Source: a virus
Lineage: Duplodnaviria > Heunggongvirae > Uroviricota > Caudoviricetes
Virus record (IMG/VR): IMGVR_UViG_2703718873_000025
DNA length: 18,324 nucleotides
Reading direction: 5' to 3' (one strand)
Shown here: positions 1-3,000 of the stretch, one piece after another
Layout of the letters: every line of letters begins with the position of its first letter
Position numbering within the stretch: position 1 is the first letter of the stretch
Made by a program: the position numbers

Positions 1-3000
1 ATGGCGCTGTCTGATGCGTGGTTGCGTTCAGTCGTTGGAAAGAAACGTGATAAGGTTTTGGTTAAATCCGATCGTGATGGTCTGTCTGTCAGAGTATCAC
101 CGAAAGGTCGCGTAGTGTTCCAATATCGTTATCAATGGGCAGGGAAAGGTGAGCGCCTTGATATCGGAACTTACCCGGCAACTGGATTAAAAGAGGCCAG
201 AGAAGAAGTTATCCGTCTCCGTGGTGAACTCGAGTTAAACCGCAATCCACGATTAGTCAAGCAGGCTGAAAAACGAAAAGCTACTGAAGCCATGACGGTA
301 GAGTCTGTGATCCGTGCCTGGTATGAAGCATATTGTGTAAAAAATAAAAAAGGTTCTGAACAGATACTCCGCTCGTTTGAGCTGCACCTGTTCTCTAAAA
401 TCGGGAATATCCCTCACGATGCAGCTACATTGCATGATTGGTTAGAAGTCCTGGAGCCTCTTAGCACCAAGACTCCAGCAATAGTAGACCGATTGCTAAT
501 TAACGCAAAGCAGGCTCATGTCTGGGCGTATAAGAGAAAGCTCATTGAAACTCGCCCACTGTCGGATATCACGGGTAAAGATATGGATATCCGTAAAGGT
601 CAGAAAAAACGGTTTCTGACACATGATGAAATTAACATCCTTTATGCTGCGATCGATGGTTCTCGAATGGTTCCTAAATACCGAGCCTTCATTAAACTAT
701 TGCTGCATTTTGGTTGCCGTAGTTCAGAGCTAATTACTGCTAGGGTGGATGATTTTGATTTCATAAATAAGGTATGGACTGTACCACCAGAACGACATAA
801 GACTGGGGACATAACAGGCGAACCGCTAAAGCGGCCCATTATTGAACCGGTTGAAGAGCTTATAAAATACGTTATCTCTATGAACAACGGTTCCGATATG
901 CTTTTTACCAAGGAAGGAAGCAGGGAGCCAGTTGGTCGGACATCATTGCAGTCGCTGCCTTACAATTTAATGCAGTTCGCATGGCGACGTTTGGGGTATC
1001 AATTTCCTCATTGGTCTCTTCATGATTTGAGACGAACAGCACGAACAAACTTTTCTGATCTTACTGCTCCTCATATTGCTGAAATAATGCTCGGTCATAA
1101 ACTGCCAGGTGTATGGCAAGTTTATGATAAGAGCGATTATCTAGAAGAACAGCGTAAAGCTTACTGGGCATGGTGGGAGAGGGTTGAATCGATCGTTACT
1201 TGTACTGACTTAATCTCCAACGGACAGTTTGCGTAGCCAGAGCGTAATCATATCTGCCAGTCCGCTGCGGATACCTTGTGTACTGGGTTTTTAGCCAGAC
1301 TACGTTAACCGGTAGCTTCAGTATTTGGGGGGGCGGCAGGAGTTTGATGGTTTATTGGGTTACTGTGGGACTAAGGATGTAGGGATGCCAATCAATGAAT
1401 TATGAAAAATATCATAGCACAAACAGAAGCAAGGGTTTGCGAACCTTCTGCTACTTAATTTATTATGTGCAGGTGATTTTTAATGTGATGAAGTGTTTTA
1501 TGACTCGCGGAAACTTTGATTTTATAAACTCTAACGTGGTTTTCTCAGAAGCCGATAAGTCATTGTGGATTGATCTCATTAACACCGATTGTATTTGGTA
1601 TGATATGATAATTAATCCTCCTGATGATATAAGAACAAATAAGATAATAAAGAACCATCTCAGAATTATGGAAAAATATACGAGGGAAAGCTGTGAAAAG
1701 AGATTTATTTATTTCTTAGGTTCAAGAAAAAAAGTGAGGTTTTCAACCAAGAAACAGCCTAGGTATAACCCATTCACAAAAAATATAGTATTCACTCTGT
1801 TGATTGGCAAAGAAGAGCGAAAGCTTCGGATAAAATATTCCTTTTGCACGTTTACGCAGAATGGGGTAGTGAAGGTAACTCCAAATGTTAGAGTAACTGA
1901 GAAGTTTCTCTACATTGAATATGAAAATGGCAATTTATGTGTAATGTCAGTTCATGACTTCGTAAACGGACATTATATTGATTTAGGAATTCATACAGAA
2001 GTGCATTACGTAGGATATACACGTCATCCGCATCGGCGCCCTGTTGATTTTATTCACCGTGGCTTATCAAAGATGCTGTATAGCGTTTCAAATGACGATA
2101 ATGATTTTTTTGTTTGTTTTAGTATATTTAATCCAAGGATTATATCTCTGAATAATAAATGTAATATAGTCTTTAATATTTCAAATTCTCTACTGGATGA
2201 AATTGATGTTGATAATGAGGGAAGAATTATTGAAAGCTGCTTAATACGTTACTTTGATCCTAAGCTTCAAGATGATGACAAGGAAAGTAAAAGGTCAGAT
2301 TTAAATAAAATGTTTATGGACTTGGTGGAAAATAAAAAAATTAAAAAAATATACGTTAATTTTCAATATGAAAGGAATAATGAGTATTTCTGCTTTTACT
2401 CTAAAGTTGTTCCGCCGAAATTTCATCATTTCTTTGTGTTGGATTTTTCTGATGGCAAGATAAATATTGATAGAGACCAGGATCTGATGACTCAGATGGC
2501 ATTGTGCATGGGGTATTATAATTATTAATATTTCGCCTGATACCAACTCAAAATCTTTTTTGTCGCATCCATTGTGGATTAATATTCAGAGGTGAGGGGT
2601 GTCTGCGGAATTTATATTTTGCAGGATGAGCATACAATACATGATATAACATCTGTTTTTGGCACAGAGCATATAGTCAGATTATGTTTAGTTCTGTGCC
2701 ATAGATGGATACTATCTCACCTCTTGGCTAACTCTCATTACTCAATAACTCCAGCAAATCTGTATATTTTGCGTGATGCCCATTTATTTGGGCAGGATTT
2801 AATATCAGGATCTGGAAAATCTGGCCTGTATTTCTGGCCTGTCCTCCTGTTTACGCTGTTCCAGCGAAGCACCGTCGATATTGAAACGCCACAGAATTCG
2901 GCGACTTGTTTTGTTGTCATTAAGTTGCTCATTGCTACCCCTCCAGCGGTTGTTCAGTTGAAAGACTCATGCGTATGTGCGTAACTCCGATAACTCGTTA

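Follow-up and report, generated by a model that had tools for sequence, protein, structure and literature searches.

The 18,324-nt stretch of viral DNA recorded as IMGVR_UViG_2703718873_000025, referred to here at its full length as the window, raises the question of what a single AT-rich gene is doing beside the integrase of a Shiga toxin-converting prophage. The window matches the chromosome of Escherichia coli JNEC-KY202 at 100% identity and represents the integrase-proximal 18 kb of a lambdoid Shiga toxin 2b (Stx2b) prophage, inserted beside yjjG. An initial annotation had singled out the gene as cargo with a candidate accessory or defence role. We find that it was acquired horizontally, that it is under purifying selection, and that it encodes a protein with a divergent GIY-YIG-like core. 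Whether it is a stand-alone nuclease-type defence gene we regard as an even question, with guilt by association and a nuclease-like fold as the basis for that reading.

Base composition sets the locus apart. The cargo cassette (positions 1267-2647; 1,381 bp, 34% GC) has a GC content of 0.340, while the open reading frame (ORF) within it has a GC content of 0.320, with 0.321 at third codon positions (GC3). Across 286 segments of the same size taken elsewhere, GC was 0.497 ± 0.035 with a minimum of 0.433, which places the cassette at z = −4.5 and bears out the earlier claim that this segment is far more AT-rich than the neighbouring phage genes. A 400-nt GC profile gave 0.30-0.34 across 1400-2600 versus 0.42-0.58 elsewhere in the window. 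To define the limits of the cassette, we used blastn against three sibling prophages (L012-L014) that have the yjjG site, the integrase, and the yfdR-Q-P operon in common with this one. Homology ends at 1232-1266 and restarts at 2648-2676. The low-GC segment therefore coincides exactly with the only block that differs from the sibling prophages, and it is the sole part of the region between int and a xis-like gene that they do not share.

The cassette was also found, with the same ends, outside E. coli. In Dryocola boscaweniae (L015), it matches window positions 1265-2663 at 83.5% DNA identity and lies in a conjugative element, between ardC and the coupling protein of a type IV secretion system and beside a Shango-like pair of SngA and an ATPase. 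In the chromosome of 'Ca. Pantoea alvi' (L017), it matches 1265-2644 at 81.9% identity and adjoins ychF-pth-prs. Separate horizontal acquisition, as first proposed, is thus upheld both by the overlap of low GC with the sibling-specific block and by the 82-84% identical cassettes in Dryocola and Pantoea. A search for terminal direct or inverted repeats, or for a recombinase, that would explain the mobility of the cassette found none. For the Dryocola copy, we note that some 20-26 nt beyond the cassette on each side resemble the E. coli prophage backbone (1240-1266 and 2648-2670 in the window; ~9735-9760 and ~11168-11190 in L015). This short resemblance may mean either that a bit of phage flank moved along with the cassette or that such flanks are docking sites for cassette exchange.

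The same slot is occupied differently in each of the siblings. It contains a gene for 428 amino acids (aa) in L012 (2297-3583, −), a gene for 183 aa in L013 (2313-2864, +), and two genes in L014 (3226-3678 and 3720-4202, +; 150 aa plus 160 aa). The comparison with related prophages that had been suggested thus showed the cassette to be absent from the siblings and replaced by other, uncharacterized cargo, as expected of the int-adjacent hotspot initially described.

We then determined which protein the cassette encodes. The frame at 1395-2528 (+) is open over 377 codons, as the initial annotation had it, but the start and length given there did not hold: the supported start is the ATG at 1500, and the coding sequence (CDS) runs from 1500 to 2528 (+; 342 aa plus stop; PHROG 7779, RefSeq WP_225261446.1) and includes the GIY-YIG-like core. 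We rejected the 377-aa form because the 35 upstream codons hold stops in the Dryocola, Pantoea, and Hafnia orthologues, and in Dryocola and Pantoea the upstream DNA is still homologous despite these in-frame stops. The PHROG 7779 profile covers residues 36-377 of the long form in full (E = 6e-245, profile positions 1-342 of 342), the RefSeq call is 1500-2528, and all homologues start with M-x-R-G. A short purine-rich element stands 6-7 nt ahead of the ATG.

The sequence upstream of this start forms a non-coding leader of ~235 nt (1267-1499, +) that travels with the gene. The leader contains the former N-terminal extension (1395-1499), which is probably not translated, and its alignment over E. 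coli, Dryocola, and Pantoea is conserved with 1-nt and 15-nt indels. A consensus scan located a promoter-like TTGCGA-18 nt-TATTAT at 1437-1466 (+), 34 nt upstream of the ATG. The Dryocola leader keeps the −35 hexamer and the 18-nt spacer, with TATGGT as its −10. As judged from sequence, 1437-1466 may act as a promoter, with the count of promoter-like sites in the region not above that in shuffled sequence. The ratio of nonsynonymous to synonymous substitution rates (dN/dS) was 0.15 against a 96.6%-identical E. coli copy, 0.21 against Dryocola, 0.20 against Pantoea, and 0.08 against Hafnia. The gene is real and under purifying selection.

Structure prediction with AlphaFold2, from a 44-sequence alignment, gave a model with a predicted local distance difference test score of 89.9 and a predicted template modelling score of 0.88. 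Three parts can be distinguished. The N-terminal module (residues 1-145; 1500-1934, +) has an alpha/beta part and then a beta-rich part, with near-invariant Y71, R76, and R80, and is a candidate target-recognition module. The central GIY-YIG-like core follows (residues ~146-260; 1935-2279, +). A small C-terminal beta module, assigned with DSSP (residues 281-342; 2340-2525, +), has near-invariant S301, H310, and F312, and its key residues are conserved at 86-92%.

The relationship of the core to GIY-YIG nucleases was spotted by eye, in that HYVGYTxxPxxRPxxxxHxG resembles YIGxTxNPxxRxxxH, and was then put to hhalign. Six GIY-YIG domain sequences (five of the six above the PF01541 gathering score) were compared with a 125-member alignment of the family. 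For the core, taken as residues 140-300 or 165-265, hhalign returned a probability of 79-85% with P = 1.6e-5, and the score of 32.9 can be set against 60 column-shuffled controls that scored 9.1 ± 1.8 with a maximum of 14.5. The alignment pairs Y170 with Y17 of I-TevI and R180 with R27, at an equal spacing of 10 residues. The protein therefore has a 'YIG' tyrosine (Y170-V-G172) with the putative catalytic arginine, R180, about 10 residues on, and the model has the alpha/beta core fold of GIY-YIG domains. E245 and Q257 are matched, in a low-confidence stretch of the same alignment, to the catalytic Glu and the conserved Asn, respectively. Both lie in an acidic helix motif, E240-G-x-I-I-E245-x-x-L-I-x-Y251-F252-x-x-x-x-Q257 (2217-2270, +; helix 237-252), from which E240 and E245 are candidates for the metal-binding Glu and Q257 for the Asn equivalent.

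This assignment changes how the His-rich stretch of the protein, HTEVHYVGYTRHPHRRPVDFIHRG (residues 165-188 of the 342-aa form; 1992-2063, +), is understood. The initial annotation had considered it a possible catalytic or metal-binding site. It is likely to be a catalytic segment, as the YIG-Arg-His signature Y170-V-G172-x-T174-x-x-P177-x-x-R180-(5)-H186-x-G188, rather than a histidine cluster or metal site as such. The stretch holds five of the protein's 10 histidines, of which H186 (86%) and H169 (57%) are the only ones conserved across the 125 relatives, together with Y170, G172, T174, P177, R180, and G188; the motif columns are conserved at 86-94%. Individual counts among the 125 members were 111 for Y170, 110 for R180, 104 for E240, 109 for E245, 119 for Y251, 120 for F252, and 93 for Q257.

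No member of the family reached the PF01541 gathering score, and only one of 44 members scanned singly gave a match, at E = 0.012. The earlier statement that the protein contains no placeable motif thus stands for searches at the level of Pfam and fails at the level of profiles and structure, where the GIY-YIG-like core emerges. The proposed profile and structure searches had a similarly divided outcome: hhalign linked the family to GIY-YIG domains, and Foldseek against the PDB and BFVD yielded nothing plausible. Our conclusion is a divergent GIY-YIG-like fold for the central domain, in which the YIG-Arg-(His)-Glu half of the active site persists; membership of PF01541 is not demonstrable. Compared with that superfamily (I-TevI, UvrC, T4 EndoII, Eco29kI, Slx1), the GIY half with which the motif opens is missing or cannot be recognised, a conserved [H/Y]152-D-F takes its place, and the position expected for the conserved Asn is occupied by Gln257 or Asn229.

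Next, we examined how widely the family is distributed. A word-indexed search of 5.8 billion proteins returned 47 clusters, an exhaustive phmmer search of 1.84 billion representatives returned 161, and a profile search of the 5.8 billion proteins returned 298 clusters. Among the 120 members listed of these 298 profile matches, none has a Pfam domain or a name, and the source names read 'hypothetical protein'. Almost all full-length members are 320-385 aa long and share a single architecture. The hosts are mostly Gamma- and Betaproteobacteria and Campylobacterota, with a few metagenome-assembled genomes of other phyla. Within E. coli, the gene is present in 62 of 5,426 complete genomes, in one copy each and always on the chromosome; two further E. 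coli copies that we inspected have the same layout, and all 14 of 14 matches in IMG/VR are the same prophage. In 47 of 47 loci from several phyla (L015-L061), the AT content of the homologue exceeds that of its 10-kb flanks, with differences of up to 26 points; in Burkholderia lata, for example, the homologue has a GC content of 0.42 and the flanks 0.68. Low GC is therefore a trait of the whole family and not of the present prophage.

This distribution bears on the possibility that the gene encodes a phage life-cycle nuclease, similar to T4 EndoII, which the prophage would use for its own ends, such as degrading host DNA, recombination, or replication. A function of this kind sits poorly with a gene found in 62 of the 5,426 E. 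coli genomes when the same prophage backbone (the yfdR block) is found in ~3,000 of them, and with siblings and an inducible phage lineage that lack or replace it. The gene is, moreover, transcribed toward the early-left operon from its own leader, and its family is mostly non-phage. We consider this explanation very improbable.

The surroundings of the homologues were then compared. A conserved partner gene was sought over 45 loci and none was found; the commonest neighbour cluster occurs in five of the 45, in variable positions and strands, so that a cryptic two-gene system was rejected. The observation that only one gene is visible in the segment was thereby extended, with the unique segment being one gene and no neighbour conserved over these loci, and it follows that the gene works alone or with host factors. 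Six of 11 individually inspected contexts outside E. coli adjoin defence or conflict systems. In Robbsia, the gene stands between BrxR-BilABCD and Drt3b-Drt3a, and on a metagenomic gammaproteobacterial contig it is followed by OloB-OloA. The Salmonella homologue is in an integrative and conjugative element (ICE) with a Dcm-type methylase, DUF4928, and Vsr, whereas in Klebsiella the order is a reverse transcriptase, HsdS/M/R, the gene, Tlde1-Hcp, and ScoMcrA-SBD-HNH. The last two are the smpB island of Proteus, which has an integrase, DUF927, and CTD6-MC2, and the ICE of Dryocola with its Shango-like genes. The remaining five of the 11 contexts (Budviciaceae, Arcobacter, Psychrobium, Cronobacter, and Pantoea) have no defence-like genes.

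To place these contexts on a quantitative footing, a batch scan with PADLOC (E ≤ 1e-10) compared 142 ORFs within two genes of the homologue with 142 ORFs located five to eight genes away, the latter drawn from 27 of the loci. At ±2 genes, 91 PADLOC families were matched versus 29 at ±5-8 genes, and strong matches numbered at least 11 near the homologue versus ~3 at five to eight genes. The families found near the gene include AriAB, DitA/B, QatC/D, AbiEii, TRIP13, PD-Lambda-3_B, SngA, PDC-S05, and PDC-S35, and the neighbouring systems include DRT3, Bil, Olokun, restriction-modification, PARIS, Qat, and Shango.

Two other nuclease-based explanations can be weighed against these contexts. The first is that the gene is a selfish, free-standing homing-type nuclease that cuts cassette-free sites and is copied into them by repair, with no benefit to host or prophage. 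The clean cassette speaks for this, yet the siblings hold different cargo and show no filled-versus-empty polymorphism. Outside E. coli, the family resides in chromosomal islands and ICEs, with the IMG/VR matches all tracing to one prophage; genomes carry one copy each, and the contexts are unrelated across genera and share no target gene. Free-standing GIY-YIG homing endonucleases have their catalytic domain at the N terminus and a tail at the C terminus, whereas the core here is central and Pfam detects no NUMOD or IENR1-type DNA-binding tail. Enrichment beside defence systems is likewise not expected of a homing gene, and we regard the homing explanation as improbable.

The second is that the protein is an abortive-infection or toxin-type effector, that is, an inactive nuclease that is triggered by infection, degrades host and phage nucleic acid, and kills the cell, with no direct discrimination of foreign DNA. 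Neither a methyltransferase nor an antitoxin partner accompanies the gene, and the two extra modules could have an autoinhibitory or a sensing function; CMoRE, a GIY-YIG defence enzyme, is a documented case of autoinhibition (PMC12923530). Abi-type neighbours (AbiEii, CBASS parts, PARIS, and DRT) fit as well. This would itself be a variant of defence, inseparable from direct restriction on present data, and we see it as unlikely.

Single-protein GIY-YIG systems offer the closest points of comparison for a stand-alone defence nuclease. In E. coli, the type IV restriction enzyme CMoRE/PD-T4-3 (PDB 9u75) consists of a single GIY-YIG protein, with an N-terminal nuclease, a 'GIYxY-YIG' motif, and a C-terminal sensor of 5-hydroxymethylcytosine (PMC12923530). 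The present protein has no sequence relationship to it and no PADLOC match at E ≤ 1, its core is central between two unrelated modules, and it has no GIYxY motif and no recognisable GIY tyrosine. PD-Lambda-1 and Uzume are single-gene defence systems reported with GIY-YIG domains (bioRxiv 10.1101/2024.10.26.620412, PMC10952713). Like them, our candidate is one gene for a (here predicted) GIY-YIG-type nuclease in accessory regions. It differs in that the protein matches no model of PADLOC-DB 2.0.0 and that its family is without a Pfam domain among the matches listed. PADLOC-DB 2.0.0 is presumed by us to contain models for PD-T4-3, PD-Lambda-1, and Uzume. The protein is a full-length member of PHROG 7779, a group with no functional information, and no paper on it was retrieved from the literature by accession, by UniRef or PHROG id, or by phage name. 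The family is thus unannotated and unstudied, and is a structurally atypical offshoot of a known nuclease superfamily. The concept into which it fits, a single-gene nuclease defence system on mobile elements, is already known.

A number of observations weigh against a nuclease with a role in defence. The window protein found no match in Pfam, NCBIfam, or PADLOC, and the PADLOC scan that had been proposed as a check came out negative, with 0 families of PADLOC-DB 2.0.0 at E ≤ 1. Foldseek hits against the PDB and BFVD reached E values of 0.02-0.04 at best and were implausible (galectins and coronavirus spike proteins); phmmer against the PDB gave noise, and whole-protein and core-only profile hidden Markov models (HMMs) recovered no GIY-YIG chain. 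There is no conserved Tyr 10-11 residues upstream of Y170, and the strand with the 'GIY' tyrosine is not identifiable. At that end of the core, a conserved [H/Y]152-D-F (His in 100 and Tyr in 17 of the sequences in the 125-member alignment) comes after a strand at 146-150, and a chimeric hhalign scan that used every 11-residue segment as the first strand produced gains of at most 4 score units. The sampled genes in the sibling slots have no Pfam or PADLOC match, and none is a known defence gene. Housekeeping neighbours are common among the homologues (guaAB, rpoBC, ychF-pth), and the enrichment of defence neighbours is real but only partly controlled, as the control was distance within the same locus rather than a genome-wide background. 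In addition, a gene of 32% GC may be silenced by H-NS in E. coli.

Conservation within the family belongs on the same side. About 10% of the relatives (e.g., P0121-P0123, P0167, and P0172) have lost Y170, G172, R180, and H186, often with E245, while this divergent sub-clade keeps R76, R80, [H/Y]152, D153, D202, Y251, F252, S301, H310, and F312. The second residue set is therefore more universally conserved than the GIY-YIG residues, and the GIY-YIG-like site may not be the sole functional site, or not the essential one. The second set could complete one composite active site or form a separate binding site. As an observation on the sub-clade itself, its pattern implies either a second functional site or inactivated paralogues; its genomic contexts (loci L078 and L079) were uninformative.

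These data bring in a further alternative, in which the GIY-YIG likeness is a structural relic and the protein is not a nuclease but acts through R76, R80, H/Y152, D153, D202, S301, and H310. Its role could then be in binding, in some other enzymatic reaction, in anti-defence, or in lysogenic conversion. In favour of this alternative are the sub-clade that retains the second residue set and loses Y170, R180, and H186, the undetectable GIY strand, and the absence of any Foldseek, Pfam, or HMM-versus-PDB match. The Dryocola cassette also adjoins ardC, an anti-restriction gene, within a conjugative element, and anti-defence genes cluster in such regions too. We rate this alternative as rather unlikely.

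A stand-alone nuclease acting in defence, as proposed here, would work as follows. The cassette at 1267-2647 is a horizontally mobile, self-contained unit with its own leader, a probable promoter, and one CDS, lodged in the variable slot between int and the xis-like gene of the Stx2b prophage. Its product is a cytoplasmic 342-aa protein in three parts: the N-terminal module, the predicted nuclease core, and the small C-terminal beta module. We infer that it would be expressed from the lysogen and act as a stand-alone nuclease-type immunity protein. The non-catalytic modules would recognise a feature of invading DNA, e.g., a modified base or an intermediate of replication or packaging, and the GIY-YIG-like core (Y170, R180, H186, and E240/E245) would cut that DNA, as do the type IV enzymes CMoRE/PD-T4-3.

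A bolder version of the proposal, for which we would set the chances somewhat short of even, is that the family represents a new single-protein class of systems against phages or other mobile genetic elements. It would be built on a 'half' GIY-YIG site in which YIG-Arg-Glu is kept and the GIY Tyr is replaced by [H/Y]-D-F or supplied by another module. Two new modules, with the more conserved residue set (R76, R80, D202, S301, and H310), would sense the invader, and the whole would move as a 1.4-kb cassette of promoter and gene among prophages, ICEs, and chromosomes. To PHROG 7779, our analysis adds a fold assignment, the true start codon, the cassette limits, and the genomic associations. If the defence role is true, an Stx-converting prophage carries an unrecognised one-gene immunity module, which could affect which phages, therapeutic ones included, infect the lysogen, and with that the competitiveness of the toxin phage. 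It would also define an atypical GIY-YIG branch with two uncharacterised candidate sensor modules.

The slot that carries the cassette can be described from both of its edges. On the left is the tyrosine integrase gene int (1-1236, +; Pfam Phage_integrase, Arm-DNA-bind_3, and Phage_int_M, and RefSeq). On the right is a backbone block common to all siblings (2648-2949; blastn 83-88% to L012-L014), which contains an ORF for a 64-aa helix-turn-helix (HTH) protein (2738-2932, −) with a weak HTH_17/MerR-type HTH match (E = 4e-4, under the Pfam gathering score). RefSeq has no annotation for this ORF in this strain, and the equivalent in L013 is called 'DNA-binding protein' (WP_001061365.1). By its sequence, it is probably an excisionase, and with this xis-like ORF in the right shared block the slot corresponds to the int-xis gap. 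In this widespread prophage group, whose backbone is present in ~3,000 of the 5,426 complete E. coli genomes, the gap is where further uncharacterised cargo might be sought. The genes in the slots of L012, L013, and L014 are more accessory genes of this kind, possibly worth screening.

An inverted repeat, GGCACAGAGC-N20-GTTCTGTGCC (2658-2700), lies in the sibling-shared backbone at the right edge of the slot. The lack of a T-run after it on either strand speaks against a canonical terminator, and it may instead bind a protein or serve in recombination. An ORF at 2592-2984 (+), listed as hypothetical in the record of phage PhiR63_1, was considered as a second cargo gene and rejected. It looks spurious: no family matched it, most of it falls within shared backbone, and it runs antisense to the conserved HTH ORF. 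In siblings, a DUF551 gene and a DUF551-like gene of ~120 aa separate the xis-like ORF from yfdR (L012 4272-5254, L013 3674-4655). Both are missing here (~2950-2960), which indicates a second rearrangement right beside the cargo slot. An Rfam scan of 1100-3100 found no RNA family, and no tRNA is close to the cassette.

A possible functional link between the cargo gene and the Dam-like methyltransferase of the prophage (9918-10571) was also considered and judged unlikely, because Dam-like methyltransferases are ordinary backbone genes in that region of lambdoid phages. Among the other contexts of the family, the Proteus mirabilis loci L082/L083 (6014-8722) place the homologue after a three-gene set (Pfam CTD6, MC2, and a 606-aa protein), with a DUF927 primase-like gene on the island. 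This smpB island has the appearance of an integrative or satellite-like element with a conflict system as cargo.

The remainder of the window follows a lambdoid order. After int come the target ORF; yfdR, yfdQ, and yfdP on the minus strand; cI-like and cro-like regulators; replication and nin-region genes; the Q antiterminator gene (13275-14027), which lies upstream of the Stx2b operon; and two tRNA-Arg genes, with anticodons tcg (14176-14252) and tct (14266-14342). The Shiga toxin 2b operon is downstream of Q and both tRNA-Arg genes, beginning at 14434 with stxA2b (14434-15393) and continuing with stxB (15406-15669). PhiR63_1, a 48-kb phage of ECOR13, has nearly the same arrangement at 99% identity.

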